Below are positions 1 through 62,640 of a DNA stretch of 64,000 nucleotides, piece by piece. This DNA is from Eledone cirrhosa. Taxonomy: Eukaryota. The notes beneath the pieces were generated by a model. The model was not told where the DNA came from, searched no databases, and saw only the letters and a list, made by a program, of their open reading frames with translations. The stretch spans positions 2,914,001 through 2,978,000 of the forward strand of contig OZ024764.1 in the NCBI GenBank assembly GCA_964016885.1, written 5' to 3'. The translations under genes were made by a program, and so were the position numbers. How positions within the stretch are numbered: the stretch's first letter is position 1; each line of letters begins with the position of its first letter.

Positions 1-1787
1 CTTATCCCTCTTATACACAGTTTCTCTCTCAACACATCACATGTCCATACCATCTCAGTCTTCTCTCCCACACACTACAACTTATTCCTCTTATACACAG
101 TTTCTCTCTCAACGCATCACATGTCCATACCATCTCAGTCTTCTCTCCCACACACTACAACTTATTCCTCTTATACACAGTTTCTCTCTCAACACATCAC
201 ATGTCAATACCATCTGTCTTCTCTCCCACACACTACAACTTATTCCTCTTATACACAGTTTCTCTCTCAACACATCACATGTCCATACCATCTGTCTTCT
301 CTCCCACACACTACAACTTATTCCTCTTATACACAGTTTCTCTCTCAACACACCACATGTCCATACCATCTCAGTCTTCTCTCCCACACACTACAACTTA
401 TTCCTCTTATACACAGTTTCTCTCTCAACACATCACATGTCCATACCATCTGAGTCTTCTCTCCCACACACTACAACTTATTCCTCTTATACGCAGTTTC
501 TCTCTCAACACATCACATGTCAATACCATCTGTCTTCTCTCCCACACACTACAACTTATTCCTCTTATACACAGTTTCTCTCTCAACACATCACATGTCC
601 ATACCATCTGTCTTCTCTCCCACACACTACAACTTATTCCTCTTATACACAGTTTCTCTCTCAACACACCACATGTCCATACCATCTCAGTCTTCTCTCC
701 CACACACTACAGTTTATCCATCTTATACCCAGTTTCTCTCTCAACTCATCACATGTCCATATCATTGCAGTCTTCTCTCCCTCACACTACAACTTATCCT
801 TCTTATACACAGTTTCTCTCTCAACACATCACATGTCCATACCATCTCAGTCTTCTCTCCCACACCACAACTTATTCCTCTTATACCCAGTTTCTCTCTC
901 AACTCATCACATGTCCATACCATCTCAGTTTACTCTCCCACACACCACAACTTATCGCTCTTATACCCAGTTTCACTCTCAACACATCACATGTCCATAC
1001 CATCTCAGTCTTCTCTCCCACACACTACAACTTATCCCTCTTATACCCAGTTTCTCTCTCAACACATCACATGTCCATACCATCTCAGTCTTCTCTCCCA
1101 CACACTACAGTTTATCCCTCTTATACCCAGTTTATCTCTCAACACATCACATGTCCATACCATCTCAGTCTTCTCTCCCACACACTACAACTTATCCCTC
1201 TTATACCCAGTTTCACTCTCAACACATCACATGTCCATACCATCTCAGTCTTCTCTCCCACACACTACAACTTATCCCTCTTATACCCAGTTTCTCTCTC
1301 AACACATCATATGTCCATACCATCGCAGTCTTCTCTCCCACACACTACAACTTATCCCTCTTATACCCAGTTTCTCTCTCAACACATCACATGTCCATAC
1401 CATCTCAGTCTTCTCTCCCTCACACTACAACTTATCCCTCTTATACACAGTTTCTCTCTCAACACATCACATGTCCATACCATCTCAGTCTTCTCTCCCT
1501 CACACTACAACTTATCCCTCTTATACACAGTTTCTCTCTCAACTCATCACATGTCCATACCATCTCAGTCTTCTCTCCCTCACACTACAACTTATCCCTC
1601 TTATACACAGTTTCTCTCTCAACTCATCACATGTCCATACCATCTCAGTCTTCTCTCCCACACACTACAGCTTATCCCTCTTATACACAGTTTCTCTCTC
1701 ACCACATCACATGTCCATACCATCGCAGTCTTCTCTCCCACACACTACAACTTATCCCTCTTATACACAGTTTCTCTCTCAACTCAT
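1..1787 (-). repeat. ~80-bp (78-80) minisatellite, about 22 copies in the window, running off the left edge; derived from RTE LINE family A
   Basis: The minus-strand unit reads LREKLGIRGISCSVWERRLRWYGHVMC, the same segment present once at ~3000-3080 and ~10255-10320. Confidence 0.93.
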
Positions 1788-1915
1788 CTATACTTGGTCA
1801 ATAATGCACATCCAACGGAGCATGCTTGCTTCATTTCTCTCCAGCCGTCACATATCCTCTACAGTTGCTGCCCATGTCTCACAACCATGCAGCATCGCGC
1901 ATCTCACACAGCATA
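1788..1915 (-). mobile_element. RTE LINE family A fragment hosting the 80-bp array
   Basis: Minus strand encodes VRCAMLHGCETWAATVEDM.RLERNEASMLRWMC, contiguous with the array. Confidence 0.85.
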
Positions 1916-1917
1916 TG

Positions 1918-2131
1918 AATCATCATCATCATCGTTTAACGCCCATCTTCCAAGCTAGCATGGGTTAGACGATTTTGTTCCATTTGATGCGGTAATGGTC
2001 GGGAGACCGTGTCTCGCTCGAACGCAAGTGTCTCTGGCAGGTTTTTTACAGCTGGATGCCCTTCCTAACATCAACCACATTTACAGTTTGGACTGGGAAT
2101 CTTTTTACCGTGTCTCCTACATGACCACATT
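1918..2131 (-). mobile_element. SINE-like element with RTE-type (GAT)n tail; single copy of the 49-bp motif
   Basis: (CAT)n followed by CGTTTAACGCCCATCTTCC. Near-identical to 16648-16850. Confidence 0.75.
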
Positions 2132-2642
2132 ACACACATATATATATATATATAAGAAGACCTGGGATGAGGTGATAAAAGCCGACCTTACTCAATTACA
2201 CTTCTCAAAGGTGATGACACACGACCGTGACCTCTGGCATCACGCAGTAATACAGAAGACCTGACCACCCATAGGTCAAGTCGAAGTTGAAGCATATAGT
2301 CAATATGCCCGCACATCCTCCCACTGCAAAGTGGTCGTGGAGGCGCCACGGCAAAAAAGCACCCAGCCCACACTGTAAAGTGGACGTGTAGGCGCCATGA
2401 GGTTGGTGTTAGGAAGGGCATCCAGCTGTAGAAATCAAGCCAGAATCAGTTCCCGTATGAGCAAGACAAGGTCAGCCGACCGGACACTGCCCACAACAGG
2501 ACAACCCGTCTAACCGATGCTAGCATGGAAGAATGGACGTAAAACGGTGATGATATATATATATAACGAAGGAAATGTGGTAAGGAACCAGGTGGACCAT
2601 AACGCACCAAAGTACTCAATACTTAGGGTAGTAGAGTGGGTA

Positions 2643-2772
2643 ATAGGAACGAGTAGGACCTCGACGGCTGAGCTCAAGCCGTTTCGACGGCTAATTCTGG
2701 ACTAAAATTTTAGTCCAGAATTAGCCGTCAAAACGGCTTGAGCTCAGCCGTCAGGGTCCTACTCGTCCCTAT
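2643..2772. repeat. Spacerless palindrome, ~65-bp arms, centre 2707/2708
   Basis: ...GCTAATTCTGGACTAAAA|TTTTAGTCCAGAATTAGC... with few mismatches. Confidence 0.9.
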
Positions 2773-2776
2773 ATAT

Positions 2777-3229
2777 ATCATCATCATCATCATTTTACGT
2801 CCGCTTTTCCCTGCTTGCAAGGGTGGGACGGGTCTTATTCAGCACAGCATCTCTCCACTCGTCACGGTCCCTCGTCATCTCCACCGTGAGCTTCAATGAT
2901 CTGAGGTCTGTTCTCACCACCTCCGCCCATGTTTTTCGTGGTCTACCTCTACCACGTCTTCCTTCAACTGGCACTTCTTCACCCATCGGTCATCCTCCAT
3001 GCGCATCACATGTCCATACCACCTCAGTCTCCTCTCCCGTACACTACATTCTATCCCTCTCAGACACAGTTTCTCTCTGAACACATTTATGCTGGGTCGT
3101 TCACGCACATTTACACTGCACATCCAACGGAGCATGCTTGCCTCATTTCTCTCCAGCCGTCGCATATCCTCTGCGGTTGCTGCCCATGTCTCACTACCAT
3201 GCAGCATCGCGCTCCTCACACAGGCATCA
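2777..3229 (-). mobile_element. RTE LINE family A 3' fragment, unexpanded
   Basis: YDACVRSAMLHGSETW...RRLRWYGHVMRM...GRRGRGRPRKTW followed by a (GAT)n tail. Confidence 0.9.
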
Positions 3230-3293
3230 TATATATATATATATATAAAAACATGAGAAGAATGAATACTGCGTGGTTGCACATGGGTTACAT

Positions 3294-3492
3294 ATGATAA
3301 AAATAGTCCTTCATCAGTTGCGTTGCTATCCTTCTATGTTTGTTTACTTGTCTCGCTCGCTTTACGCGATTTACTTGTCCCAATAGCTTTATTTAGCTAT
3401 TGCTCGCACCAACTGGAGGTATATGATTTTTAAAGCGATGAAATACCAATGAAGGTTGGAAAATCACTGATGAAGGACTATTTTTTTATCAT
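3294..3492. mobile_element. Small MITE with ~25-bp terminal inverted repeats next to (TA)n
   Basis: ATGATAAAAATAGTCCTTCATCAGT ... ACTGATGAAGGACTATTTTTTTATCAT. Confidence 0.6.
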
Positions 3493-3515
3493 ATATATAT
3501 ATATATATATATATA

Positions 3516-3758
3516 TAGTAAGGTGCTATTGGATTACATTCACATGTGGTATGCCAAGATAAGCACTTGTTGCTATTGAGGAGCAGAGTATCAGTAATAA
3601 TTAGGGAACAAACAATCAGTGTTGCATCATTTACATATTTAATTACATATTACACATGTTTCACTGTCGATCAGCTCGAGGTATGATTGATTATGTTCGT
3701 TTCCTGACTCTGGAATCGTAAGCTCTTCAGATATGTTCTTACATGTGGACTCACGTCC
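3516..3758 (+). mobile_element. Unclassified ~240-bp interspersed repeat, TA-flanked; second copy at 63644-63884
   Basis: Both copies start TAGTAA(A)GGTGCTATTGGAT and end GTGGACTCACGTCC. Confidence 0.75.
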
Positions 3759-3794
3759 CAAAACACCAACCATGTTTAGCAAGCATAAAACTGA

Positions 3795-4815
3795 TAACAT
3801 CGTGAGTTCGATTCTCGAACCGAACTTTGTGTTGTTTCCTTGAGCAAGACACTTTATTTCACATTGCTCCAGTTTACTCAGTTGTAGAAATGAGATGTCA
3901 CGTCACTGGTACCAAGCTGTATCAGCCATTGCCTTTCCTTTGGACTACATATATACTCTAGTGTATATCATCATCATCATCATCATTTTATGTCCGCTTT
4001 TCCCTGCTTGCAAGGGTATATATATATGGTATATATATACACGATATATATATATATCGTGTGTAAAATGTATATACCTAGTATATAATGTATATATACA
4101 CAAGCGGTATCAGCCATTACCTTTCCCTTGGACAACATATATAGTGTAGTGTATGTATATGGTGTGTAAAGTATATATATAGTATGTATATAATATATTG
4201 TGATTTCACTGGTACCAAGCTGTATCAGCCATAGCCTGTCCCTTGGACAACATATATAGTACATATAGTATACACGTAGTGCATATATACAGTATATAAT
4301 ATATATAGTATATATTGTATATATACAGTGTATATATTGTCATGTTAGTGGTGCCAAGCTGTATCAGCCATTTCCTTTCTCTTGGACAACATATATAGTG
4401 TAGTGTATCATCATCATCATCATCATTTCATTTTACGTCCGCTTTTTCCCAGCTTGCAAGGGTGGAACGGGAACTGATGCTGGCTTGATTTCTACAGCTG
4501 AATGCCCTTCCTAACACCAACCTCATTTACAGTGAGTGCTGGGTGTTTTTTTGCCGTGGCACCTCCACGACCACTTTGCAAGGCCAATGCTCTAACCACT
4601 AAGCCATGTGCCTCCATATATGTTATGTTACTGGTGCCAAGCTGTATCAGCCATTGCCTTTCCCTTGGACAACATCAGTGGTGTGGTGAGGAGAGACTGG
4701 TATACATGGGTGACCACTTGTCTTCCACAAACACTCTTGCCCGGACTTATACCACGGAGGGGGAACTTTCTAGGTACAAATCCTATGGTCATTTGTGATA
4801 GTAGGGGGTCTTTAT
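3795..4815 (+). mobile_element. SINE with an internally reiterated segment and a nested deleted SINE (~4408-4615, minus)
   Basis: B box GAGTTCGATTC and core TCCTTGAGCAAGACACTTT. ACTGGTACCAAGCTGTATCAGCC...TTGGACAACAT recurs about 5 times. Confidence 0.65.
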
Positions 4816-5673
4816 CGTATATATATATATATAGAACATCTTATACATCTAAACTATAATAAAGTAAGGAGTGAGGGACTGCATACAGTTTATAATTTTT
4901 TTATTCCCTTAGTAAAATAAGTTGGATTACATTCAATAAATAATGAATGAATATTACATAATTTATCTACTAAATTTCGTGGCTGTTCATTATTTTATTA
5001 CTAAAATTTTCAAATGTCAACACTTCTAGTTAGCGATTGCTTAAATAAACATTCATATATTTCTGTCCCTAATTTTCTCCTAATCCAGTTTATATATAAT
5101 ATCGTCTTTTTTTAATGTATCACTGATTACATAAGAGAGTGTAACACAGTCTTCGTTCAATTTCTGTGTATATTGTCAATTATGATTTTATTTGATGTAT
5201 CATATCTACATGCATATATACTTGCGTAAAATATCAATATACACACTACACATACTAACAGAAAACCACCCGAAGGGTGGTTTTTCTGCTAGTAGCTCTA
5301 ACAGGTCAATAAAATGTTGTTCCCTGGGGATAAATAAAATCTCAAGCAACTTAAATATAAGGAGCCTGACCAAAATCCCTGACCACGAAAACAGACTATA
5401 TTCTCAGGCTTTAAAATATGAAAATTCGGCTTCAGTGTTTTATATTTTATTTGTTTTCTTCGTCTTCACCCACTTATTGCTGAGAGGGTCGTGGGGACAA
5501 AGTCCTCAAACACTCCCTCCAGTGGGTCCTGTCTGAAGCAACTCTCTCCAACTGATCCGGCAGGGTCTCCAAGCGTGAGCAGCGAAGCTCATGGATGTTA
5601 TCCAACCATCTTGCTCGGGGTCTACCCCTGGGTCTCCTACCTGTTCGTTTTTGCCTTTAAAATTCGTTCCACA

Positions 5674-7061
5674 ATTCTTTTGTGAGACATTCTAACCAGA
5701 TGTCTGTAGTATCAGAGCTGTGGTATCTCAATTCAGAGATTCTTTCCTGAGACATTCTAACCACATGTCTGTAGTGTCAGAGCTGTGATCTCTCAATTCA
5801 GAGATTCTTTCCTGAGACGTTCTAACCACGTCTGTAGTAACAGAGCTGTGGACTCTCAATTAGTAGATTCTTTCCTGAGACATTCTAACCACATGTCTGT
5901 AGTATCAGAGCTGTGATCTCTCAATTCAGAGATTCTTTCCTGAGATGTTCTAACCACATGTCTGTAGTATCAGAGCTGTGATCTCTCAATTCAGAGATTC
6001 TTTCCTCAGATATTCTAACCACATGTCTGTAGTATCAGAGCTGTGATCTCTCAATCCAGAGATTCTTTCCTGAGACATTCTAACCACATGTCTGTAGTAT
6101 CAGAGCTGTGATCTCTCAATTCAGAGATACTTCCTGGGACATTCTAAACTCATGTCTGTAGTATCAGAGCTGTGATCTCTCAATTCAGAGATTCTTTCCT
6201 GAGACATTCTAACCACATGTCTGTAGTATCAGAGCTGTGATCTCTCAATTCAGAGATTCTTTCCTGAGACATTCTAACCACATGTCTGTAGTATCAGAGC
6301 TGTGATCTCTCAATTCAGAGATTCTTTCCTCAGACATTCTAACCACATGTCTGTATTATCAGAGCTGTGATCTCTCAATTCAGAGATTCTTTCCTGAGAC
6401 ATTCTAACCACATGTCTGTAGTATCAGAGCTGTGGTCTCTCAATTCAGAGATTCTTACCTGAGACATTCTAACCACTTGTCTGTAGTGTCAGAGCTGTGA
6501 TCTCTCAATTAGTAGATTCTTTCCTGAGACATTCTAACCACATGTCTGTAGTATCAGAGCTGTGATCTCTCAATCCAGAGATTCTTACCTGAGACATTCT
6601 AACCACATGTCTGTAGTATCAGAGCTGTGATCTCTCAATTCAGAGATACTTCCTGGGACATTCTAACCACATGTCTGTAGTATCAGAGCTGTGATCTCTC
6701 AATTCAGAGATACTTCCTGGGACATTCTAACCACATGTCTGTAGTATTAGAGCTGTGATCTCTCAATTCAGAGATTCTTTCCTGGGACATTCTAATCACA
6801 TGTCTGTAGTATCAGAGCTGTGATCTCTCAATTCAGAGATACTTCCTGGGACATTCTAACCAGATGTCCATAGTATCAGAGCTGTGATCTCTCAATTCAG
6901 AGATTCTTTCCTGAGACATTCTAACCACATGTCTGTAGTATCAGAGCTGTGATCTCTCAATTCAGAGATTCTTTCCTGAGACATTCTAACCACATGTCTG
7001 TAGTATCAGAGCTGTGATCTCTCAATCCAGAGATTCTTTCTTGAGACATTCTAATCAGATG
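5674..7061. repeat. 65-bp minisatellite, about 21 copies (left part of array 1)
   Basis: Unit GAGACATTCTAACCACATGTCTGTAGTATCAGAGCTGTGATCTCTCAATTCAGAGATTCTTTCCT. Confidence 0.95.
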
Positions 7062-10000
7062 GGGGTGGATGGAGGCTCCGTAAGCCGTAGAGTAGGCAAC
7101 CCGTCTAGGAGAGCTACCACTCCGAATAAATTGGTGCGGCATAGAGAAGTCCCCTAAGTAAGAGAACTTCCCTAGTGCTGGTGGCATGAATAAAAGTACT
7201 CTGTTCATGCTGTAAAATGGAGGGGTAAAGAGGGCCCTGAGTCCAGTAACACAACCTCTCTAGTGCTGGTGGCACGAATAAAAGCACCCAGTCCATGCTG
7301 TAAAATGGAGAGGTGGATATGGCCCCTGAGTCCAGTAAGACGATCTCTCTAGTACTGGTGCATGAATAAAAGCACCCAGTCCATGCTGTAAAGTGGTGCT
7401 GGTGTTAGGAAGGGCATCCAACCAGTATATATACTACTGCCAAACACTATGAACACAACAAATGAAATTTGCAACAACTGCGTAAACAGCAATAACACTA
7501 ATCATGTTAGGGCTGCGCACGGTAGTGGGGTGGCAGGCGAGGCCATGTGCGAGAACCAAGACTGTTATCAAGCAATCACACAACAGGAAAAAGAACGAGA
7601 CGTAGCATCTCAGAGTTGCCACACTTAATGTTGGCACTCTAAAAGGTAGATCTGGTGAGATAGCGGAGATGCTGGAGAGAAGACATGTGGATGTGTGCTG
7701 TGTGCAAGAGGTGAGATGGAGAGGTGCCTCTGCAAGACTACTCGCAGGCAAACATCTTAGTTATAAGCTTTTCTGGGTGGGTAATGATGATGGGTTAGGT
7801 GGGGTGGGCATATTACTGGCTGAGAGATGGATCGATAAGACAATAGGGGTAGTTAGAGTTAGTAATAGAATAATTAAGCTTAGATTAGTTGTAAGCAAGA
7901 GACTACTGACAATCATCTCTGCCTATGCTCCCCAGGCAGGCCTAGGTAAAGAAGAGAAAGACTGCTTTTACGAGCAACTTTTACAAACAGCCTCAATGAC
8001 AGAGGACGGAGACATCATTATGCTAGCAGGGGACTTCAATGGACATGTTGGACAGCTCCAGGATGGATACACTGGGGTACATGGTGGGCACGGTTACGGC
8101 TCAAGAAATGAAGGAGTGAGGCTACTTGAATTTTTTGATGCAAATGCACTAACCATTTGCAACACTAACTTCCAGAAGCCTACCAACCACCTAATAACCT
8201 ACAAATCAGGCGAGCACATAAGCCAGATTGACTCCCTGCTAGTTAGACAACAAGACAGACAGATGGTGTCAAATACTAAGGCATACCCTGGGGAAGAATG
8301 TACCCCACAGCATAGGTTAGTCGTTAGTGACATCTCAGTAAGCAAGAGAAAGAATGAGACATACAGGAAGGTGTGGAAAAGAAAGGTCTGGAAGCTAAAA
8401 GACCCTTTCATTAAAATATAAATTTAGCAAAGCCCTTCAAGACGTGTATGACAAAAAGGAAGACGATTTAGAGTTGTATGACAGATAATAACTGGAATTT
8501 CTTACGTGACAACTTACTGCAGGCTACTGAAGAAACTTGTAGTTGGGGCAGAGCTTCAACCAGACAGAGAGTGACCTGGTGGTGGAACAGCACGGTAGAT
8601 AGGTCCATTAGAGACAAAAGACTGGCATGGAAGGCTTGGAAAAAGGGTGGGAGTAGAGAAGGATATACAGCTGCTAAGAGAGAAGCTAGACGTCAGGTGT
8701 ACTTAGCACATAGGGAGGCTGAGAGTAGGAGGTTTGCCAATGTTCTGCAACGGGAAGATCAGAGACATGCAGTGTTCCACATTGCAAGGCATTGTGTCAA
8801 TGCAAATCAGGATGTTGTTGGAGATAAGTGTGTCCGGCATGATGCCGGTGTACTTAGTGTCATGAATGATCAGAAAAAGGAGGCCTGGAAATGTCATTAT
8901 GAGAGACTGATGAATGTGGAGAACGAATGGGAGAGAGAGAAATTACCCCCAGTAGACCTAACAGAGGGACCAGCTATTGAGATTGACGAATATAGGGTAC
9001 AAGAAACAATTAAAGAAATGAAGAATGGTAAGGCTGCTGGACCGTCGGGGATAGTTGCTGAGATGCTGAAGGCATCAGGGGACGTAGGCACTAAACTGGT
9101 TGCACGCATCATCAATCAGGCTATATATGGTGGTGTCATACCCAATGACTGGTGCAGCAGTATTCTCATATCATAAATTGCTACAAAGGTAAAAGGGATG
9201 CTCTAGAGAGGAGCAATTATAGGGGCATAAAGCTGATGGATCAGGTTATGAAAGTGGCACAGAGAATATTAGCGCAACTGATTAGAGAAAGGGTCAAACT
9301 AGATGAGATGCAGTTTGGTTTTGTGCCTGGGAAAAGTACAACAGATGCCCTCTTCTTGGTGAGACAATTAGGTAGAAACTAGGTGTAGAGAAATGGCTTG
9401 TGAGGATAGTGCAAGCTATGTACAGGGGTGCTGTCAGTAAAGTGAGAGTAGGTATGGAGTTTAGTGAGGAATTCCAGATACAAGTAGGTGTACATCAGGG
9501 TTCGGTCCTCAGCCTGCTCTTGTTCATTATAGTCCTCCAAGCCATAACAGAGGAGTTTAAGACTGGATGCCCCCGGGAACTTCTCTATGCTGATGATCTG
9601 GTTCTTATAGCAGAATCAGTAGAGGAGCTAGAGAATAAATTCTGGCTCTGGAAATGGCCGTTAGAATCAAGAGGACTGAGAGTGAACCTAGCTAAGACAA
9701 AAGTGTTAATATGTAGAAAAGAAGACAAAACTGTCATTCCATCAGGGAAATGGCCTTGTTCAATATGTAGGAAAGGAACTGGCATAAATTTCATAAAATG
9801 TACTCAATGCAGATCTTGGGTACACGAAAGATAGTGGGATAGCAGGCAAACTAACAGGTAGGGAAAACTACATATACAGTAGATGTACAGGGAAAGTTGG
9901 CAGTAGTAATTGCAGTGATAGACACATTTTTCCAATGCAGGTGGGTTCTATAGAAGTGGTGGGTAGCTTCTGGTACCTTCGTGATCAGATTAGCATGGGA

Positions 10001-10548
10001 GAGGGCGTGGGGTTGTTCCGAGTCCATAGTATCTAGAATAAGGACGGGTTCGAAGAAGTTTAGGGAGCTGCTTCCTTTGTTGACAAAGAAGAGTTTCTCC
10101 ACGTGTAGGAAAGGGCGGTGAGATGTGCCATGCTGCATGGTAGTGAGACATGGGCAGCAACTGCAGAGGATATGCGATGGCTGGAGAGAAATGAAGCAAG
10201 TATGCTCCGTTTGATGTGCAATGTCAGTGTGTGTGAACGACCAAGCATAGACAAGTTGAGAAAGAAACTGGGTATAAGAGGGATAAGTTGTAGTGTGCAG
10301 GAGAGAAGACTGTGATGTACATGGAGGATGACCGCTGGATAAAGAAGAGCCAAGAAATCCCAGCAGAAGGAAGACGCAGTAGAGGTAGACCACGAAAAAC
10401 ATGGGTGGAGGTGGTGAGAGCAGACCTCAGATCGCTGAGACTCACCGAGGAGATGACCGTGACAAGTGGAGAGATGCTGTGCTGAATAGGACCTGTCCAA
10501 CCCTTGCAAGCAGGGAAAAGCAGACGTAAAATGATGATGATGATGATG
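7062..10548 (+). mobile_element. Near-full-length degenerate RTE-clade LINE (family A): APE endonuclease and reverse transcriptase
   Basis: APE motifs TLNVGTL, VQEVRW, SAYAPQ, GDFNGH, SQID, QHRLVV. RT motifs KAAGPSG, NYRGIKL, QFGF, GVHQGSVLS, YADD, VNLAKTK. Cys-rich CSIC..CTQC..WVH segment and (GAT)n tail. Multiple stops and frameshifts. The 5' boundary (7062-7430) may include a separate SINE-like piece. Confidence 0.93.
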
Positions 10549-13500
10549 TCTGTAGTATCGGAACTTGATCTCTCAATTCAGAGATTCTTTCCTGAGACAT
10601 TCTAACCACATGTCTGTAGTATCAGAGCTGTGATCTCTCAATTCAGAGATTCTTTCCTCAGACATTCTAACCACATGTCTGTAGTATCAGAGCTGTGATC
10701 TCTCAATTCAGAGATTCTTTCCTGAGACATTCTAACCACATGTCTGTAGTATCAGAGCTGTGATCTCTCAATCCAGAGATTCTTACCTGAGACATTATAA
10801 CCACATGTCTGTAGTATCAGAGCTGTGGTCTCTCAATTCAGAGATTCTTTCCTGAGACATTCTAACCACATGTCTGTAGTATCAGAGCTGTGATCTCTCA
10901 ATTCAGAGATTCTTTCCTGAGATATTCTAACCACATGTCTGTAGTATCAGAGCTGTGATCTCTCAATCCAGAGATTCTTTCCTGAGACATTCTAACCACA
11001 TGTCTGTAGTATCAGAGCTGTGATCTCTCAATTCAGAGATTCTTTCCTCAGACATTCTAACCACATGTCTGTAGTATCAAATCTGTGATCTCTCAATTCA
11101 GAGATTCTTTCCTCAGACATTCTAACCACATGTCTGTAGTATCAGAGCTGTGATCTCTCAATCCAGAGATTCTTACCTGAGACATTCTAACCACATGTCT
11201 GTAGTATCAGAGCTGTGGTCTCTCAATTCAGAGATTCTTTCCTGAGACATTCTAACCACATGTCTGTAGTATCAGAGCTGTGATCTCTCAATTCAGAGAT
11301 TCTTTCCTCAGACATTCTAACCACATGTCTGTAGTATCAGAGCTGTGATCTCTCAATTCAGAGATTCTTTCCTGAGACATTCTAACCACATGTCTGTAGT
11401 ATCAGAGCTGTGATCTCTCAATTCAGAGATTCTTTCCTCAGACATTCTAACCACATGTCTGTAGTATCAGAACTGTGATCTCTCAATTCAGAGATTCTTT
11501 CCTCAGACATTCTAACCACATGTCTGTAGTATCAGAGCTGTGATCTCTCAATTCAGAGATTCTTTCCTCAGACATTCTAACCGCATGTCTGTAGTATCAG
11601 AGCTGTGATCTCTCAATTCAGAGATTCTTTCCTGAGACATTCTAACCACATGTCTGTAGTATCAGAGCTGTGATCTCTCAATTCAGAGATTCGTTCCTCA
11701 GACATTATAACCACATGTCTGTAGTATCAGAGCTGTGATCTCTCAATTCAGAGATTCTTTCCTGAGACATTCTAACCACATGTCTGTAGTATCAGAGCTG
11801 TGATCTCTCAATTCAGAGATTCTTTCCTGAGACATTCTAACCACATGTCTGTAGTATCAGAGCTGTGATCTCTCAATTCAGAGATTCGTTCCTCAGACAT
11901 TCTAACCACATGTCTGTAGTATCAGAGCTGTGATCTCTCAATTCAGAGATTCGTTCCTCAGACATTCTAACCACATGTCTGTAGTATCAGAGCTGTGATC
12001 TCTCAATTCAGAGATTCTTTCCTGAGACATTCTAACCACATGTCTGTAGTATCAGAGCTGTGATCTCTCAATTCAGAGATTCTTTCCTGAGACATTCTAA
12101 CCACATGTCTGTAGTATCAGAGCTGTGATCTCTCAATTCAGAGATTCGTTCCTCAGACATTCTAACCACATGTCTGTAGTATCAGAGCTGTGATCTCTCA
12201 ATTCAGAGATTCTTTCCTGAGACATTCTAACCACATGTCTGTAGTATCAGAGCTGTGATCTCTCAATTCAGAGATTCTTTCCTGAGACATTCTAACCACA
12301 TGTCTGTAGTATCAGAGCTGTGATCTCTCAATTCAGAGATTCGTTCCTCAGACATTCTAACCACATGTCTGTAGTATCAGAGCTGTGATCTCTCAATTCA
12401 GAGATTCGTTCCTCAGACATTCTAACCACATGTCTGTAGTATCAGAGCTGTGATCTCTCAATTCAGAGATTCTTTCCTGAGACATTCTAACCACATGTCT
12501 GTAGTATCAGAGCTGTGATCTCTCAATTCAGAGATTCTTTCCTGAGACATTCTAACCACATGTCTGTAGTATCAGAGCTGTGATCTCTCAATTCAGAGAT
12601 TCGTTCCTCAGACATTCTAACCACATGTCTGTAGTATCAGAGCTGTGATCTCTCAATTCAGAGATTCTTTCCTCAGACATTCTAACCACATGTCTGTAGT
12701 ATCAGAGCTGTGATCTCTCAATTCAGAGATTCTTTCCTCAGACATTCTAACCGCATGTCTGTAGTATCAGAGCTGTGATCTCTCAATTCAGAGATTCTTT
12801 CCTGAGACATTCTAACCACATGTCTGTAGTATCAGAGCTGTGATCTCTCAATTCAGAGATTCGTTCCTCAGACATTCTAACCACATGTCTGTAGTATCAG
12901 AGCTGTGATCTCTCAATTCAGAGATTCTTTCCTGAGACATTCTAACCACATGTCTGTAGTATCAGAGCTGTGATCTCTCAATTCAGAGATTCTTTCCTGA
13001 GACATTCTAACCACATGTCTGTAGTATCAGAGCTGTGATCTCTCAATTCAGAGATTCGTTCCTCAGACATTCTAACCACATGTCTGTAGTATCAGAGCTG
13101 TGATCTCTCAATTCAGAGATTCTTACCTGAGACATTATAACCACATGTCTGTAGTATCAGAGCTGTGGTCTCTCAATTCAGAGATTCTTTCCTGAGACAT
13201 TCTAACCACATGTCTGTAGTATCAGAGCTGTGATCTCTCAATTCAGAGATTCTTTCCTGAGATATTCTAACCACATGTCTGTAGTATCAGAGCTGTGATC
13301 TCTCAATCCAGAGATTCTTTCCTGAGACATTCTAACCACATGTCTGTAGTATCAGAGCTGTGATCTCTCAATTCAGAGATTCTTTCCTCAGACATTCTAA
13401 CCACATGTCTGTAGTATCAAATCTGTGATCTCTCAATTCAGAGATTCTTTCCTCAGACATTCTAACCACATGTCTGTAGTATCAGAGCTGTGATCTCTCA

Positions 13501-14223
13501 ATCCAGAGATTCTTACCTGAGACATTCTAACCACATGTCTGTAGTATCAGAGCTGTGGTCTCTCAATTCAGAGATTCTTTCCTGAGACATTCTAACCACA
13601 TGTCTGTAGTATCAGAGCTGTGATCTCTCAATTCAGAGATTCTTTCCTCAGACATTCTAACCACATGTCTGTAGTATCAGAGCTGTGATCTCTCAATTCA
13701 GAGATTCTTTCCTGAGACATTCTAACCACATGTCTGTAGTATCAGAGCTGTGATCTCTCAATTCAGAGATTCTTTCCTCAGACATTCTAACCACATGTCT
13801 GTAGTATCAGAACTGTGATCTCTCAATTCAGAGATTCTTTCCTCAGACATTCTAACCACATGTCTGTAGTATCAGAGCTGTGATCTCTCAATTCAGAGAT
13901 TCTTTCCTGAGACATTCTAACCGCATGTCTGTAGTATCAGAGCTGTGATCTCTCAATTCAGAGATTCGTTCCTCAGACATTCTAACCACATGTCTGTAGT
14001 ATCAGAGCTGTGATCTCTCAATTCAGAGATTCGTTCCTCAGACATTCTAACCACATGTCTGTAGTATCAGAGCTGTGATCTCTCAATTCAGAGATTCTTT
14101 CCTGAGACATTCTAACCACATGTCTGTAGTATCAGAGCTGTGATCTCTCAATTCAGAGATTCTTTCCTCAGACATTCTAACCACATGTCTGTAGTATCAG
14201 AGCTGTGATCTCACAATTCAGAG
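10549..14223. repeat. 65-bp minisatellite, about 56 copies (right part of array 1)
   Basis: Same unit, resuming in register after the LINE tail. Confidence 0.95.
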
Positions 14224-14458
14224 AAGTAGCAACTCTACTTGAAGTGGCTCTCTGATCTATGCACTTTATCGAGTAATGTTACTGCAAAGACGCTCTGGCG
14301 TAACCCAATTTCAGCCGCTTGTATTCGTGGTTGTATTCTTTCTGTCATTACCGAAGATTCATGGCCATAGGTAAGGGTTGGTATGAAAACCGAAGAAGAA
14401 GCCCTCCTCCACCAGCCTATTTTATTTGTTTTCTAATTTTATTCCTGTCTACTTTCAG

Positions 14459-14606
14459 GACTGCTGCTGATTATTACGATGTTGTGAGCACCCCTATTGA
14501 TCTCTTAAAGATTCAACAGAAACTGAAAACCGATGAATATGATGAACTGGAACAGTTTGCTGCAGATATTGAACTGATGGTGAGCAACACCAAGGCTTAC
14601 TACAGA
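14459..14606 (+). CDS. PBRM1: Polybromo-1 (BAF180) internal exon, bromodomain 1
   Basis: Polypyrimidine tract and TTTCAG acceptor (AG 14457-14458), GTAAGT donor at 14607. Translates (R)TAADYYDVVSTPIDLLKIQQKLKTDEYDELEQFAADIELMVSNTKAYYR, matching the PBRM1 BD1 pattern DYYEVVSQPIDLMKIQQKLK as I recall it. Confidence 0.93.
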
Positions 14607-16370
14607 GTAAGTAGTGTATTTCCATCTCTCTGGTGTTACAGAGGATTAACTGTTGTTTAGCCCTAGGTCAACAACACTGATCCTTACTATAGAGTATGTA
14701 CTCTCTCTCTGGTATTACAGAGGATTAACTGTTGTTTAACCCTAGGTCAACAACACAGCTTTACTATAGAGTATGTAGTCTCTCTCTCTCTGGTATTACA
14801 GAGGATTAACTGTTGTTTAACCCTAGGTCAACAACACAGCTTTACTATAGAGTATGTAGTCTCTCTCTCTGGTATTACAGAGGATTAACTGTTGTTTAAC
14901 CCTAGGCCAACAACACTGAGCCTTACTATAGAGTATGTAGTCTCTCTGGTATTACAGAGGATTAACTGTTGTTTAGCCCTAGGCCAACAATACTGAGCCT
15001 TACTATAGAGTATATAGTCTCTCTCTCTGGTATTACAGAGGATTAACTGTTGTTTAACCCTAGGTCAACAACACTGAGCCTTACTGTAGAGTATGTAGTC
15101 TCTCTCTCTGGTATTACAGAGGATTAACTGTTGTTTAGCCCTAGGTCAACAACACTGATCCTTACTATAGAGTATGTACTCTCTCTCTGGTGTTACAGAG
15201 GATTAACTGTTGTTTAACCCTAGGTCAACAACACAGCTTTACTATAGAGTATGTAGTCTCTCTCTCTGGTATTACAGAGGATTAACTGTTGTTTAGCCCT
15301 AGGTCAACAATACTGAGCCTTACTATAGAGTATGTAGTCTCTCTGGTATTACAGAGGATTAACTGTTGTTTAACCCTAGGCCAATAACACTGAGCCTTAC
15401 TATAGAGTATATAGTCTCTCTCTCTGGTATTACAGAGGATTAACTGTTGTTTAGCCCTAGGTCAACAATACTGAGCCTTACTATAGAGTATGTAGTCTCT
15501 TTCTGGTATTACAGAGGATTAACTGTTTAGCCCTAGGCCAACAATACTGAGCCTTACTATAGAGTATATAGTCTCTCTCTCTGGTATTACAGAGGATTAA
15601 CTGTTGTTTAGCCCTAGGTCAACAATACTGAGCTTAACTATAGAGTATATAGTCTCTCTCTCTGGTGTTACAGAGGATTAACTGTTGTTTAACCCTAGGT
15701 CAACAATAATAAGCCTTACTATAGAGCAGGCATGTCTAACTGAGGGTCCCCCATGTGTTGTCTGATGGCCACACATAACAACTATTTTTTCAAATTGTAT
15801 ATTAGAAAGTTAAAACATGCTCGCGCTGTAAAAACCTTCGTGTGGGATGCAGGTGTGCCTGTAAAGGGCCACATGTTTGATATGCCTGTTCTAGAGTATG
15901 TAGTATCTCTCTCACTCTCTGGTAATACAGAGGGCTGGAGAGTTAACTTGTTTAACCCTAGGTCAACAGACAGCCTTACTATAGAGTAACTAGTGTCTAT
16001 CTCTCCTTCATCTCCCTCTGTCTTTGGTAATACAGAGGGCTGGAGGGTTAACTGTTGTTTAACCCTAGGTCAACAGACAGCCTTACTATAGAGTAACTAG
16101 TGTCTATCTCTCCCTCATCTCCCTCTGTCTTTGGTAATACAGAGGGTTGGAGGGTTAACTGTTGTTTAACCCTAGGTCAACAGACAGCCTTACTATAGAG
16201 TAACTAGTGTCTCTCTCTCCCTCATCTCCCTCTGTCCTTGGTAATACAGAGGGCAGGAGGGTTAACTGTTGTTATGTTGTTATTTAGCCCTGAGTCAACA
16301 ATACTGAGCCTTATTAAAGAGTCTCTCTTTGATATTACAGAGGGCTGGAGGGTTAACTTGTTGGTGTTTA
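14585..16370 (+). repeat. ~80-bp tandem repeat (about 14 copies, then diverged ~107-bp copies) whose unit spans the exon donor junction
   Basis: Exon end CAACACCAAGGCTTACTACAGA|GTAAGT is echoed as CAACACTGAGCCTTACTATAGA|GTATGT in the units. Confidence 0.88.
15727..15888. mobile_element. hAT-like MITE inserted in the donor-spanning repeat
   Basis: CAGGCATGTC...GATATGCCTG termini, imperfect 8-bp TSD CTATAGAG/TTCTAGAG, homologous to 30627-30828. Confidence 0.8.
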
Positions 16371-16384
16371 GTCCTACTGAGTGT

Positions 16385-16647
16385 ATGTTTGAGACCGTGT
16401 GTAAGGGAAGGCAGGTCTTCTGTATAGAGCCAAAGATCTCGAACCTGTGTCATTATCTTTGAGAGGTGCAAGTGTGCAAGGTCAGCCTTTATCACCTTGT
16501 CCCAGGACTTTCTGGGACTTCTTACTCCATAGCTTCCATATATTTTGATCACCCTGAACCATATATGCATCACATGACTATACTAACCCAATCTCCTCCC
16601 TAGTAAACTGTGGCTGACTCCTCTTTAGCCATACCTATCACATGACC
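16385..16647 (-). mobile_element. RTE-like LINE family C 3' fragment
   Basis: Minus strand SLLGRRLG*YSHVMHIW...PRKSWDKVIKADL. A related piece lies at ~2153-2265 (+). Confidence 0.7.
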
Positions 16648-26432: not shown

Positions 26433-26498
26433 CGCCCGCTCCTCTGACCCCTAATTCCTCTCCCAGTACACTCACCCTTTCCTGCTCTCTATTTGCAG

Positions 26499-52809: not shown

Positions 52810-53601
52810 AAAAGGTTGGCTATACGATGCCTGTGTGAGATGCGCGATGCTGCATGGTAGTGAGACATGGGCAGCAACTGCAGAGGATATGCAACAGCTG
52901 GAGAGAAATGAAGCAAGCATGCTCCGTTGGATGTGCAGTGTAAATGTGCGTGAACGACCAAGTATGAGTTGAGAGAGAAACTGTGTATAAGAGGGATAAG
53001 TTATGGTGTGTGGGAGAGAAGACTGAGATGGTATGGACATGTGATGTGTTGAGAGAGAAACTGTGGATAAGAGGGATAAGTTGTGGTGTGTGGGAGAGAA
53101 GACTGAGATGGTATGGACATGTGATGTGTTGAGAGAGAAACTGTGTATAAGAGGGATAAGTTGTAGTGTGTGGGAGAGAAGACTGAGATGGTATGGACAT
53201 GTGGTGTGTTGAGAGAGAAGCTGGGTATAAGAGGGATAAGTTGTGGTGTGTAGGAGAGAAGACTGAGATGGTATGGACATGTGATGTGTTGAGAGAGAAA
53301 CTGGGTATAAGAGGGATAAACTGTAGTGTGTGGGAGAGAAGACTGAGATGGTATGGACATGTGATGTGCATGGAGGATGACCACTGGGTAAAGAAGTGCC
53401 AAGAAATCTCAGTGGAAGGAAGACGCAGTAGAGGTAGACCACGACAAACATGGGCGGAGGTGGTGGAGAGCTGACGTTAGATCACTGAAGCTCACAGAAG
53501 AGATGACGTAGGACAGTGACAAATAGAGAGAGATGCTGTGCTGAATAGGACCCGTCCCATCCTTGCAAGCAGGGAAAAGCAGACGGTAAAATGATGATGA
53601 T
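52810..53601 (+). mobile_element. RTE LINE family A 3' fragment with 5 tandem copies of the 80-bp unit (~52968-53368)
   Basis: YDACVRCAMLHGSETW, five RRLRWYGHV units, GRRSRGRPRQTW, (GAT)n tail. Confidence 0.9.
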
Positions 53602-55500: not shown

Positions 55501-56025
55501 CCCTTTAATGTTAAAACAGGCCAGAATTCTCTACCTTTACCTGGCTGTAACTGGTCACTCAAACTGATGTTCAGGTATTGTTCTCAAAATAAATACTTTC
55601 AAAATCTCATAGATTTGATATTATGTTAGATAATTATGTGGGGTAAAGCCTTTACTGTGAAAATACAATAGTATATATAGAGTAATGTAAATGTTATGTG
55701 AGGTAAAGCCTTTACTGTGAAAATACAATAGTATATATAGAGTAATGTAAATGTTATGTGAGGTAAAGCCTTTACTATGAAAATGCAATAGTATATATAG
55801 AGTAATGTAAATGTTATGTGTGGTAAAGCCTTTACTGTGAAAATACAATAGTATATATAGAGTAATGTAAATGTTATGTGAGATATTATGTGAGGTAAAG
55901 CCTTTACTGTGAAAATACAATAGTATATATAGAGTAATGTAAATGTTATGTGAGATATTATGTGAGGTAAAGCCTTTACTGTGAAAATACAATAGTATAT
56001 AAAGAGTAATGTAGATGCTAAAGGG
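55501..56025 (-). mobile_element. Monomeric copy of the TTAA MITE with a ~6-copy 60/71-bp array
   Basis: Homologous to 33304-33939. Ends GCTAAAGGG-TTAA. Confidence 0.82.
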
Positions 56026-56929: not shown

Positions 56930-57838
56930 CTTCCCTTCTTCTTCACCCACTTATTCCTGAGAGGGTCGTGGGGCAAAAGTCCTCAAACACTCCCTCCAGA
57001 GATTCTTTCCTGAGACATTCTAACCACATGTCTGTAGTATGAGTTGTGATCTCTCAATCCAGAGATTCTTTCCTGAGACATTCTAACCACATGTCTGTAG
57101 TATCAGAGCTGTGGTCTCTCAATTCAGAGATTCTTTCCTGAGACATTCTAACCACATGTCTGTAGTATCAGAGCTGTGATCTCTCAATTCAGAGTTTCTT
57201 TCCTCAGACATTCTAACCACATGTCTGTAGTATCAGAGCTGTGATCTCTTAATTCAGAGATTCTTTCCTGAGTCATTCTAACCACATGTCTATAGTATCA
57301 GAGCTGTGATCTCTCAATTCAGAGATTCTTTCCTCAAACATTCTAACCACATGTCTGTAGTATCAGAGCTGTGGTCTCTCAATTCAGAGATTCTTTCCTC
57401 AGACATTCTAGCCACATGTCTGTAGTATCAGAGCTGTGATCTCTCAATTTGGAGGTTCTTTCCTGAGACATTCTAACCACATGTCTGTAGTATCAGAGCT
57501 GTGATCTCACAACTCAGAGATTATTTCCTGAGACATTCTAACCACATGTCTGTAGTATCAGAGCTGTGATCTCTCAATTCAGAGATTCTTTCCTCAGACA
57601 TTCTAACCACATGTCTGATGTATCAGAGCTGTGATCTCTCAATTCAGAGAAGTAGCAGCTCTACCTGAAGTGACTTTCTGATCTCCGAGCTACACACTCT
57701 ATCGAGTAATGTTACTCTCAAGACACTTTGGAGGAACCCCATTTCAGCCGCTTGCATTCGAGATTGTTTTCTTTCGGTCATTACTCAAGATTCATGACCA
57801 TAGGCAAGGGTTGGGACGAATACCAATTTGAAGACAGT
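56930..57838 (-). mobile_element. LINE family B fragment, copy 3, with a ~10-copy 65-bp array (56997-57650)
   Basis: Same flanks. Deletion on the left side of the array. Confidence 0.88.
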
Positions 57839-59380: not shown

Positions 59381-59889
59381 AGATATACAGATATTATTAT
59401 AATTTGGTGGGTTTTTGATATATAACGTACCAGCCTAGCACTGATGGTTCTTCTTCCCTTCTCTCTCTCACTCTCTCTCTCTCTCTCTCTGTATACGTAT
59501 GTATGTGCCTTTATGTTCCCTGTATATCATCTGTGGCCATGCTGGAGCTATCTCTCTATATAGATATATACAAGAGTAATTTTTAAAAAATGTGTATATA
59601 TATATATTTTTGTTTATGGGGTGTGGGTATAGCACTGTCTTTGTACGTGTATGTGTGTACCTGTGTGTGTTTTTGTATTATTGTGTATGTGTGTATATTA
59701 GTGTGTGTGTGTGTGTGTGTCTATGTTAGTGTATGTCTATGTTTGTATATGTGTTAGCAAGTGTATTTAAGGCCTTTTAAGATAAGTAAGCTTCTTTCAA
59801 CATACTGACGCGTATTTGTTTATATGTGTGTGTATGTGCATACATTTATATGTATGAGTATATAAATATAAACGTGAAAACAGACATGC

Positions 59890-60350
59890 TTACAAAAACA
59901 CACTCACACATACTTTCACACAAACACACACATACTTTCACACAAACACACATATATATTCACACAAACACACATATATATTCACACAAACACACACATA
60001 TATATTCAAACAAACACACATACTTTCACACAAACACACACATACTTTCACACAAACACACACATACTTTCACACTAACACACACATACTTTCACACTAA
60101 CACACACATACTTTCACACAAACACACACATACTTTCACACAAACACACACATATATTCACACAAACACACACATATATTCACACAAACACACATATATT
60201 CACACAAACACACACATATTCATACAAACACACATACTTTCACACAAACACACACATATATTCACACAAACACACACATATATTCACACAAACACACACA
60301 TATTCATACAAACACACATACTTTCACACAAACACACATACATTCACACA
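59890..60350. repeat. ~20-22-bp CA-rich minisatellite
   Basis: CACACAAACACACACATA(CTTT/TATT) repeated. Confidence 0.9.
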
Positions 60351-60884
60351 GCATAGTGTTTTCATCACCCCCTTCCTTCCTTTTACACACTCATACATTC
60401 AGGCTGGCAGCAGATGTAAAGAGAGAGAAGTAGTATGAGGTCGTCAAACTACTCCTCTCTCTTTATGTGTTGTGACAGAATCGCAGAAATTTATGATCTC
60501 TTACATGTGTTTCAATACGGTTATGTAGTCGCCTATGAGACCTGTATGTTCATGTAATCCACTGTCAAATGCTGCATATCACCAGAGAGAAAGTGGTTGG
60601 TGATAAGAAGGGCATCAAGCCATAGGAAACTTGCCAAACAAAGAGTTGGGGGGACCCTTGAAATGTGTCAAAGACATGACAAGCCTTCCTGTGCACTTAA
60701 TAGAATAGGAGACCATATGTAAGTGAAACACAGACCCGCTGGCCTCTATGGGAGATTAGTAGTGTCGCTTCAGTGGGAGAGACTGAAGTGGATGATGATG
60801 TGCTTGTATAGTAAATTATGTACACAAATACATCATTGATGTATATATGGTCAAATATACCAGATAATTTACATACGATAGGTG

Positions 60885-62640
60885 GATCTTGGGGGCAGAG
60901 TCCTCAAACACTCCCTCCAGCAGGTCCTGTCAGAAGTAAGTATGACCGGCCAAGCCCATGGATGTTATCCAACCATCTTGCTCAGGGTCTACCCCTGGGT
61001 CTCCCACCTGTTGGTTTTGCCAGTAAAATCTGTTCAGCGCTTATTACCTGAGACATTCTAACCACATGTCTGTAGTATCAGAGCTGTGATCTCTCAATTT
61101 AGAGATTCTTTCCTGAGACATTCTAACCACATGTCTGTAGTATCAGAGCTGTGATCTCTCAATTCAGAGATTCTTTCCTGAGACATTCTAACCACATGTC
61201 TGTAGTATCAGAGCTGTGATCTCTCAATTCAGAGATTCTTTCCTGAGACATTCTAACCACATGTCTGTAGTATCAGAGCTGTGATCTCTCAATTCAGAGA
61301 TTCTTTCCTCAGACATTCTAACCACATGTCTGTAGTATCAGAGCTGTGGTCTCTCAATTCAGAGATTCTTACCTGAGACATTCTAACCACATGTCTGTAG
61401 TATCAGAGCTGTGGTCTCTCAATTCAGAGATTCTTACCTGAGACATTCTAACCACATGGCTGTAGTATCAGAGCTGTGATCTCTCAATTCAGAGATTCTT
61501 ACCTGAGACATTCTAACCACATGTCTGTAGTATCAGAGCTGTGGTCTCTCAATTCAGAGATTCTTTCCTGAGACATTCTAACCACATGTCTGTAGTATCA
61601 GAGCTGTGATCTCTCAATCCAGAGATTCTTTCCTGAGACATTCTAACCACATGTCTGTAGTATCAGAGCTGTGGTCTCTCAATTCAGAGATTCTTTCCTG
61701 AGACATTCTAACCATATGTCTGTAGTATCAGAGCTGTGATCTCTCAATCCAGAGATTCTTTCCTGAGACATTCTAACCAAATGTCTGTAGTATCAGAGCT
61801 GTGATCTCTCATTTCAGAGATTCTTTCCTCAGACATTCTAACCACATGTCTGTAGTATCAGAGCTGTGATCTCTCAATTCAGAGATTCTTTGCTGAGACA
61901 TTCTAACCACATGTCTGTAGTATCAGAGCTGTGGTCTCTCAATTCAGAGATTCTTTCCTCAGACATTCTAACCACATGTCTGTAGTATCAGAGCTGTGAT
62001 CTCTCAATTCAGAGATTCTTTCCTCAGACATTCTAACCACATGTCTGTAGTATCAGAGCTGTGATCTCTCAATTCAGAGATTTTTTCCTGAGACATTCTA
62101 ACCACATGTCTGTAGTATCAGAGCTGTGGTCTCTCAATTCAGAGATTCTTTCCTGAGACATTCTAACCACATGTCTGTAGTATCAGAGCTGTGATCTCTC
62201 AGACCAGAGATTCTTTCCTCAGACATTCTAACCACATGTCTGTAGTATCAGAGCTGTGATCTCTCAATTCAGAGATTCTTTCCTCAGACATTCTAACCTC
62301 ATGTCTGTAGTATCAGAGCTGTGATCTCTCAATTCAGAGATTCTTTCCTGAGACATTCTAACCACATGTCTGTAGTATCAGAGCTGTGATCTCTCAATTC
62401 AGAGAAGTAGTGGCTCTACCTGGAGTGGTAGATAAAGCTACACACTTTATCAAGTACTCCAAAGACCCTTCAGAGGAACCACACTTTGGCCGCTTGTATT
62501 CACGATCGTATTCTTGCAGCATTACCCAAGATTCATGACCATAGGTAAGGGTTGACATGAATAGCAAGTTTGTCTTTTACAGCTACCTCCCTTGTTCTGA
62601 TTACTGAATGCTGAAGCTGGTGCATTGCTGCAATTAATCC
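60885..62640 (-). mobile_element. LINE family B fragment, copy 4, with a ~21-copy 65-bp array (61047-62405)
   Basis: Same flanks as copies 1-3. Confidence 0.88.

Follow-up and report, generated by a model that had tools for sequence, protein, structure and literature searches.

The published passages cited here describe several satellites and minisatellites that descend from, or settle on, dispersed repeats. In squamates, SINE-derived satellites (sSat) form arrays of an internal 67–215-nt retroposon piece at many loci with a subtelomeric bias, and their units, 89% alike against 64% for parent copies, are read as products of concerted evolution (PMC10702118). Within the Drosophila simulans clade, Rsp-like spread into 1.688 clusters via interlocus conversion or eccDNA reintegration (PMC7403614). 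Among human minisatellites, 23% are TE-derived, with positional hotspots within AluS and LTR12 and short flanking direct repeats (PMC3389668). Satellites derived from LINE ORF2 include chicken HinfI from CR1, PROsat, and the cetacean common satellite (PMC9659126).

We analyzed a 64,000-nucleotide stretch of the Eledone cirrhosa genome (assembly GCA_964016885.1, contig OZ024764.1, positions 2,914,001 to 2,978,000), hereafter the window, which contains arrays of 80-, 65-, and 50-bp units. As in sSat, the unit comes from inside a dispersed retroposon, a parent remnant lies at the array end, and units are closer between loci than parent copies are. Whereas sSat has SINE parents and usually one flank, the source here is LINE ORF2 in five families, often with both flanks in register; the parents contain sequence coding for endonuclease and RT, which sets them apart from SINEs. 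The cited part of the squamate account describes no segment homologous across families and does not touch on the unrelatedness of hosts (PMC10702118). Like Rsp-like in 1.688, a young, homogeneous satellite settles dispersed sites that an older, abundant repeat had seeded, and we find near-identical arrays at such pre-existing sites; Rsp-like, as portrayed in the section cited, is a foreign satellite hitchhiking on another through a hybrid junction, whereas the satellite described here goes back into individual relics of its parent LINE, where homology is full-length, and replaces the host segment (PMC7403614). Positional hotspots inside a TE and short flanking direct repeats are shared with human TE-derived minisatellites, which the cited portion presents as mostly single-locus, with 2–3 units expanded in place and hotspots confined to one family, and with no homologous coding segment across several (PMC3389668). 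Monomers from 3′/ORF2 parts are shared with the LINE-derived satellites, for which ectopic repair has been proposed as the source of tandem duplications; in the part cited, those are isolated examples in which a large block has separated from the parent, and re-colonization of relics is not described (PMC9659126).

Our preferred reading, to which we assign a probability of about 0.6, is that satellites from the end of ORF2 expanded on small chromosomes and that ectopic gene conversion then likely copied them, in register, into other old relics of the family they came from. The window contains the following features.

1–1788, minus strand: 80-bp family-A array, the window-side end of a 46-kb array; unit spans −69 to +11 relative to the G codon of GH
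1789–1917, minus: 5′ flank of the old family-A relic hosting the 46-kb array
2776–3230, minus: young family-A 3′ fragment, array-free, segment single-copy
5470–5673, minus: 3′ flank of family-B relic locus 1
5674–7061, minus: 65-bp family-B array (−29 to +36), left half of locus 1 (TRF)
7062–10545, plus: decayed, near full-length family-A LINE (~3.5 kb) inserted in the 65-bp array
10546–14224, minus: right half of the locus 1 65-bp array (TRF)
14225–14410, minus: 5′ flank of family-B relic locus 1 (LTYGHES)
14460–14607, plus: host-gene exon, bromodomain (Pfam PF00439, E 1.5e-14)
16340–16647, minus: 3′ part of a family-C relic (RSPRKSWDKVIKADL)
16648–18240, minus: insert of family-C 3′ UTR origin; holds a 49-bp array (16806–18195) and a (GAT)n tail
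18243–26431, minus: 50-bp family-C array (−51 to +2), with 69/119-bp higher-order forms (TRF)
31950–32114, plus: host-gene exon, second bromodomain (Pfam PF00439, E 1.3e-17)
35540–41880, minus: family-B relic locus 2; 65-bp array at 35714–41630, flanks in register on both sides
52830–53600, plus: old family-A relic; 80-bp array at 52964–53368, flanks in register on both sides
56940–57830, minus: family-B relic locus 3; 65-bp array at 56997–57650
60870–62650, minus: family-B relic locus 4; 65-bp array at 61033–62405, flanks in register on both sides

Arrays of the three units occupy 23,393 bp by TRF, or 36.6% of the window, in line with the first-pass annotation's estimate of roughly a third. 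The 3′ flank of the relic hosting the 46-kb array sits 44.5 kb to the left of the window. We reproduced the unit translations given earlier (ERRLRWYGHVM for 80 bp, IERSQL*YYRHVVRMSQER for 65 bp, and SLLGRRLHW for 50 bp), and all three units map, as proposed, to the RRLRWYGH segment of three LINE families; the 50-bp unit encodes SLLGRRLHW and ends at the G codon, so its claimed coverage of the motif falls short of H-V. The count of four 65-bp loci was correct, since 5674–7061 and 10546–14224 are a single array split in register by the family-A LINE. That LINE retains endonuclease, RT, a PHD-like finger, and a (GAT)n tail, and has lost 16 bp at its own WYGH codons. Excision of 16648–18240 together with its 8-bp target duplication, which lies at family-C GH codons, rebuilds W-H-G-H-V-I as predicted; the insert had been called a SINE, an identity we rejected given its 83%–87% identity to the 3′ UTR of family C itself. 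The 50-bp array, for which no LINE flank was found upstream, is known solely from this locus, and between-locus unit comparison therefore does not apply to it. In reads and contigs of four sequencing runs, coverage of the 65-bp unit greatly exceeds that of its flanks and the 99-bp junction is present, so we rejected an assembly artefact as the origin of the arrays.

RTE-clade LINEs encode an APE endonuclease and RT in one ORF with no separate ORF1, and have a short 3′ UTR and a tandem-repeat tail. Family A has this single-ORF arrangement (Exo_endo_phos, E 3.7e-8; RVT_1, E 6e-6), no separate ORF1, and a 5′ leader of about 500 bp; families B and C are represented here by RT and 3′ parts, and we take all of the families to be RTE. 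The 3′ tail is (GAT)n in A and (GAA)n in B; family C has a tail but a 350-bp UTR. From motif to tail the distance is 225–250 nt in A, B, D, and G and 600 nt in C. Family C, the parent of the 50-bp unit, has 3,737 candidate copies and is a genuine LINE family to which the unit aligns at 83%, an alignment whose failure would have counted against the proposed hotspot. The three units had been described as unrelated; this holds for B, which is 39%–41% identical to A and C, and fails for A and C, whose parent segments are 72%–79% identical, so that these two families are not unrelated. The nearest protein clusters of the LINE proteins combine PHD with RVT_1, and some are molluscan; a search of solved structures gave no match to the LINE C-terminal region.

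Beyond the window, we used a 1.9-Mb genome sample to find further families and duplications. Families D and G carry additional arrays (96- and 42-bp) overlapping the same segment; tandem repeats thus grew from the same near-end segment of ORF2 in five LINE families. The chance of three units of such lengths sharing one point, given relic coverage, is 0.012. Of 13 new duplications, none lay wholly more than 80 bp upstream, against 3.8–5.8 expected (p 0.008–0.0002 after coverage correction), and four of six interior arrays of at least four copies fell on the motif (p 0.016–0.002). A flank-based rescan of 676 arrays yielded no amplified upstream case. Left out of the 13-event test were the B units of 155, 99, and 97 bp, along with the 123-bp unit, as nested with the 65-bp unit; apparent family-A duplications of 240 and 390 bp proved to be adjacent tails of another element and were removed before counting. 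These results argue against a reading that we consider doubtful, in which no site is special: small chromosomes would seed minisatellites everywhere, most relics consist of 3′ ends, and the motif would stand out only because readers recognize it. In its favor, a 1.17-Mb small-chromosome sample is 20% arrays, with 121 unit clusters; arrays in the window also arose from host exon boundaries; 6/13 duplications lie on the motif, a weak result, and 7/13 miss it (p 0.02–0.12, the latter under the strict null); families D, F, and G alone place 2/4 there (p 0.4); and events within one family, and those of A with C, are not independent. This reading addresses position alone and leaves the shared units unaddressed.

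The proposed hotspot at WYGHV accordingly stands as recurrent seeding of the segment, but its site is a zone of some 330 bp at the end of ORF2 rather than a point. The commonest LINE-derived arrays originate in the 3′ UTR of family C. Purine content along the references showed nothing common to all families. Deletion scars were not enriched at the motif (6/78 versus 7.4% expected, p 0.52), and a break hotspot is thus not shown there; 36/78 scars fall within −80 to +130, a weak excess (p 0.03). As for self-insertion of (GAT)n-tailed elements at the motif as a seed, the majority of the 172 tails lead into (TA)n and just 2–3 into LINE coding sequence, numbers too small for a verdict. Searching with whole fragments of families G and D gave no arrays among the 40 best intact copies, a ranking biased toward intact copies and therefore uninformative.

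The cause first suggested, in which RT stalls or slips at structured RNA near WYGHV during insertion and a dimer present at birth expands later, now appears very unlikely. The similar motif-to-tail spacing in A, B, D, and G, a mild gathering of relic 5′ starts near −70 (5/80 in A, 7/58 in B), and two dimers diverged enough to date from insertion speak for it. However, folding of seven segments found no shared structure (z-scores of −0.61, −0.55, −0.15, and −0.09 for the zone in A, B, and D; −2.99 in one C copy alone), none of 29 young family-A copies has an array or dimer, and the family-C motif lies 600 nt from its tail. One C dimer has a stop codon common to both copies, which makes it younger than the decay. 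Slippage also leaves identical decayed units in unrelated hosts and the confinement of arrays to small chromosomes unaccounted for; the multi-locus pattern requires unit transfer between loci after insertion, a point missing from the first-pass annotation.

Arrays were absent from all 51 relics on C1–C7/C28 and present in 12/33 on smaller chromosomes (p 3e-6). The 65-bp dimer occurred in 0/33 family-B relics of large chromosomes, four of which are near-copies of one block. Exact matches to the entry junction fell on C25–C27, 2.5% of the genome, in 37/47 cases, and 36/40 of those retrieved were arrays; matches are scattered along the whole of C25, and the bias is toward small chromosomes. As predicted for family A, signature copies were arrays in 5/7 cases on C25/C27 and 0/6 elsewhere.

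Arrays of the 65-bp unit are alike in hosts that are not. In 12 pieces found without selecting on unit sequence, unit identity was 0.982 versus 0.769 (5′) and 0.803 (3′) for the flanks; in 38 pieces it was 0.988 versus 0.803 and 0.814. Between loci, units are 0.98–0.99 alike versus 0.81–0.85 for parent copies. A core unit is common to 38/39 array pieces and exact in 27, with 27 of the 39 chosen via a pattern containing part of the unit. No array-free copy among 53 carried four or five of its five diagnostic bases, three of which represent CpG decay. Hosts share derived flank sites at 0.065 and 0.094, equal to the background of 0.067–0.084, and the flank tree requires eight changes for hosts, which were grouped in 0% of bootstrap trees; an AU test did not reject their single origin (p 0.22) because family B is star-like. 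SVA-like joint travel of flanks and array does not fit, as flanks are 77%–81% identical with no excess of shared sites; the pair L309/L317 is the one exception. At least one in-register flank is kept at 10 of 11 unselected loci, the remaining one being an array without any homologous flank, and terminal units retain host-specific bases at their outer edges. Among old-type 80-bp arrays, five share a base found in 1/20 array-free neighbors. We conclude that the 65-bp unit likely spreads between copies by DNA recombination rather than by the LINE's own enzyme.

These data also bear on the idea, unlikely in our judgment, that arrays were born in place or inherited as source-element dimers and their units homogenized later by concerted evolution, with transfer occurring but founding no arrays. 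An old, diverged 123-bp dimer on C7, 123-bp units merely 92% alike, and the AU result agree with it, as does the concerted-evolution reading of sSat in the part cited (PMC10702118). So does L106, a 65-bp array with local sequence and the same junction; for this array and a young-type 80-bp array of the same kind, independent birth fits as well as junction-only transfer. Retrotransposed dimers, however, should occur genome-wide, against their absence from the large-chromosome B relics; within 264 kb, 9/9 family-B pieces (8/8 loci) carry the array; and dozens of loci would each have had to form an identical junction independently, at 2 bp of microhomology in the consensus.

Under conversion into old relics, rare tandem duplications with 2–5 bp of microhomology would arise in the zone, where we observe them, in at least five families, and some seeds may date from insertion, as the C7 dimer suggests. 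They would expand only on small chromosomes, matching the distribution of arrays, presumably because per-base crossover and break-repair rates are higher there. An existing array would then be the most abundant template for the segment: a break in or near a relic's copy may be repaired through array invasion, copying of at least one junction, and re-annealing, leaving the donor unit between the host's own flanks, as the units shared between loci suggest. Copying slips could yield nested units (123, 99, 97, 65, and 15 bp in family B), multiplying the apparent hotspot. More tentatively, the decayed 65-bp fragment may be a homing satellite, a selfish conversion donor without an endonuclease of its own that re-invades thousands of parent relics, with the same ORF2 segment doing so time and again across RTE-like families that are unrelated; in that case, dead LINE copies would be genome-wide landing pads, turning into satellite wherever recombination is high.

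Satellite arrival at new loci is usually untestable because the pre-insertion site is not known. Here each landing site is a LINE relic whose ancestral sequence is known and whose flanks are dated, and empty relics serve as controls by the thousand. The donor, the tract ends, the dependence on distance, and the rate of filling can therefore be measured directly. On the small chromosomes of cephalopods, array spread also provides a sequence-based stand-in for ectopic recombination. In the window, such arrays have inflated by tens of kilobases the introns of a conserved gene, presumably resembling polybromo-1, whose exon boundaries likewise seeded arrays.

The window is intronic, within a gene having bromodomain exons that we take to be polybromo-1, on C25, which at 29 Mb is among the smallest chromosome-scale pieces of the 3.0-Gb assembly (C1–C4 measure 379–443 Mb each). 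The three arrays and translations reported by the first-pass annotation all match its description, the restored WHGHVI reading in family C was reproduced, and arrays, put at about a third of the window, measured 36.6%. Genome searches returned 1,288–7,068 candidate copies per query, and the parent LINEs A, B and C are real families. With position 0 set at the glycine codon of the GH motif, the units span −69 to +11 (A, 80 bp), −29 to +36 (B, 65 bp) and −51 to +2 (C, 50 bp); when relic coverage is used to weight the draws, three such units have a point in common by chance in 1.2% of them. The satellites had been called unrelated: B does stand apart, with about 40% segment identity to A or C, but A and C are 72–79% identical, which leaves the window with two independent lineages, not three. 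The 50-bp array is confined to a single locus. The family A and C ORF also carries a PHD-like finger between the RT and C-terminal regions (L007:960-1943; Pfam PF00628, E 3e-6).

Our sample comprised the 200 kb surrounding the window, 117 pieces of 10 kb scattered over C7–C27, and about 145 loci of relics, or old decayed LINE copies, chosen by flank similarity. The DNA proved very rich in arrays, which took up 237 kb of 1.17 Mb and fell into 121 unit clusters. Nine of the 117 pieces (L160, L184, L190, L216, L227, L235, L239, L244, L252) were one satellite throughout, with units of 32–84 bp, almost every one distinct; the L235 unit is similar to a SINE segment. To place arrays on the references of nine families we used their junctions and also their flanks, the latter for 676 arrays.

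Duplications placed on LINE references; the core, −34 to +2, is that of the first-pass annotation, and D, F and G are further families
Family A, 176 bp: new unit over core
Family A, 182 bp: new unit over core
Family A, 267-bp dimer: new unit over core
Family C, 120-bp dimer: new unit over core
New family D, 96 bp, two loci: new unit over core
New family G, 42 bp x 59: new unit over core
Family A, 28 bp: off core, found by eye
Family B, 15 bp: off core
Family B, 23 bp: off core
Family C, 15-bp dimer: off core
Family B, 90 bp: off core, 3'-terminal repeat
Family D, 200 bp: off core, 3'-terminal repeat
Family F, 135 bp: off core, 3'-terminal repeat

Family-B units of 123, 99, 97 and 155 bp cover or adjoin the core and were excluded as nested with the 65-bp unit. 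Six of 13 duplications lay on the core, where 2.7 were expected (p 0.02), or 3.8 if the null used old copies with a cap at −640 (p 0.12); among interior arrays with at least four copies the figure was 4/6 (p 0.002–0.016), and for families D, F and G taken alone it was 2/4 (p 0.4). None of the 13 was wholly upstream of −80, where 5.8 or 3.8 were expected (p 0.0002–0.008). The commonest LINE-derived arrays (48/49/112 bp) derive from a doublet pre-existing in the family C 3' UTR, and such UTR arrays make up 31 of 264 pieces having at least three junctions. Together these counts define a seeding zone that covers the final 330 bp of ORF2 and peaks modestly at the motif; the pattern behind the proposed recurrent hotspot is real, but it extends further, and has less sharp support, than was claimed. 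That no site is special is a rather doubtful alternative, which bears on position only and is compatible with the transfer mechanism favored below. Deletions showed no enrichment at the motif and so supply no cause for the zone, and junction microhomology was 1–5 bp. Relic 5' starts gather near −77 to −61 (A 5/80, B 7/58), close to several duplication breakpoints.

In the 65-bp unit, two changes create a stop or are missense, and further bases depart from the family majority. Twelve array pieces at 11 loci (C25, C27, C12) were collected without regard to unit sequence, and 11 of these have the identical majority unit; mean identity was 0.982 for the unit and 0.769 and 0.803 for the flanks. An exact flank-plus-unit pattern matched 47 genome sites, 37 on C25–C27, and the 40 fetched comprised 27 mainly 65-bp arrays, five 123-bp, four 99-bp and four single copies; across 38 pieces, identity was 0.988 for the unit and 0.80–0.81 for the flanks. 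Host flanks share derived non-CpG sites at background level and are scattered across the flank tree, with a single origin not formally rejected (AU p 0.22). At least four of the five diagnostic bases occurred together in 0/53 array-free copies, and within the 264 kb surrounding the window each of the nine family-B pieces bears the array. Independent sequencing runs cover the unit deeply and contain the 99-bp junction. One decayed unit thus lies in register within many unrelated hosts, so sequence was transferred between loci when these hosts were already old. L309 (C1:406.76 Mb), on a large chromosome, and L317 (C25:4.15 Mb), on a small one, are identical in their flanks and 65-bp array, which reflects either recent copying of a block or a problem in the assembly. 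The L036–L037 region, 69 kb to the left of the window, has a 65-bp array that lacks a family-B flank and sits between family-C UTR and ORF pieces; templated insertion during a rearrangement may account for it.

Family A repeats this pattern. Five old-type 80-bp arrays (C25, C19) have a common base found in 1/20 array-free relatives and, as predicted from the exit-side pattern, arrays were present at 5/7 other C25/C27 sites and 0/6 elsewhere. Another 80-bp array lies 35 kb from the large one and combines young-subfamily sequence with the same junction; since old and young units are identical over 38 bp spanning that junction, junction-only transfer and a second birth both fit. The 80-bp array at L359 (C27:17.67 Mb) has a hybrid unit, part young-type and part old-type sequence.

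Arrays are confined to small chromosomes. Flank-picked relics on C1–C7/C28 carried none (B 0/33, including four near-copies; old A 0/18), versus 7/24 B and 5/9 old A relics on smaller chromosomes (p 3e-6, A and B combined). Reverse transcription should ignore chromosome size, so this bias counts against it unless only later expansion is size-dependent. RT slippage, the mechanism first proposed, is therefore very unlikely as the main cause: young family-A copies also lacked arrays (0/29), and RNA folding at the segment was unremarkable in A, B and D. Some seeds may nevertheless have that origin, with size-dependent expansion, since large chromosome C7 carries an old 123-bp dimer.

The units come from one zone in five families. 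We favor, at a probability of roughly 0.6, a homing process in which transfer into old relics of the parent LINE itself creates arrays, beyond homogenizing existing ones. Birth in place followed by homogenization between loci appears unlikely. Array-creating transfer could proceed by ectopic synthesis-dependent repair from an abundant array template, or by circle reintegration; small chromosomes would recombine more, and nested units may be slips during copying.

This in-register spread through parent relics is the more valuable result and is directly testable. In the accessible text of the sources cited here, the closest known mechanism is that of Rsp-like satellites, which spread into 1.688 clusters via conversion or eccDNA (PMC7403614). 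Squamate sSats form arrays inside SINE remnants, homogeneous between loci, and in-register hosts may be present in the published supplements (PMC10702118); Tribolium arrays lack regular ends (bioRxiv 10.1101/2023.04.24.538079). Positional hotspots inside an element are known for AluS and LTR12 (PMC3389668), as are LINE-ORF2 satellites (PMC9659126), and the word "satellite" is absent from the accessible Octopus vulgaris repeat annotation (PMC13282606). Our search, which covered only a minority of subscription journals, found no literature describing a satellite zone common to several RTE families or the return of satellites into relics of their parent LINE.

Some arrays lie at or near host-gene exons. 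The 81- and 107-bp arrays (window 14625–16273) begin where a bromodomain exon ends, and what they repeat is a copy of its last codons and splice donor. In the 60-bp array (31575–31954) the repeated sequence is the splice acceptor of the next bromodomain exon together with that exon's first codons, yielding several look-alike acceptors. About 67 bp (26432–26499) separate the end of the 50-bp array from an exon acceptor downstream, and the intervening pyrimidine tract partially resembles the array's unit. A 72/60-bp AT-rich family (32454–33931, 55634–56017 and many sampled loci; 26 arrays in the sample) twice forms an inverted pair flanking a short core, and looks like the internal repeat of a non-autonomous DNA element.
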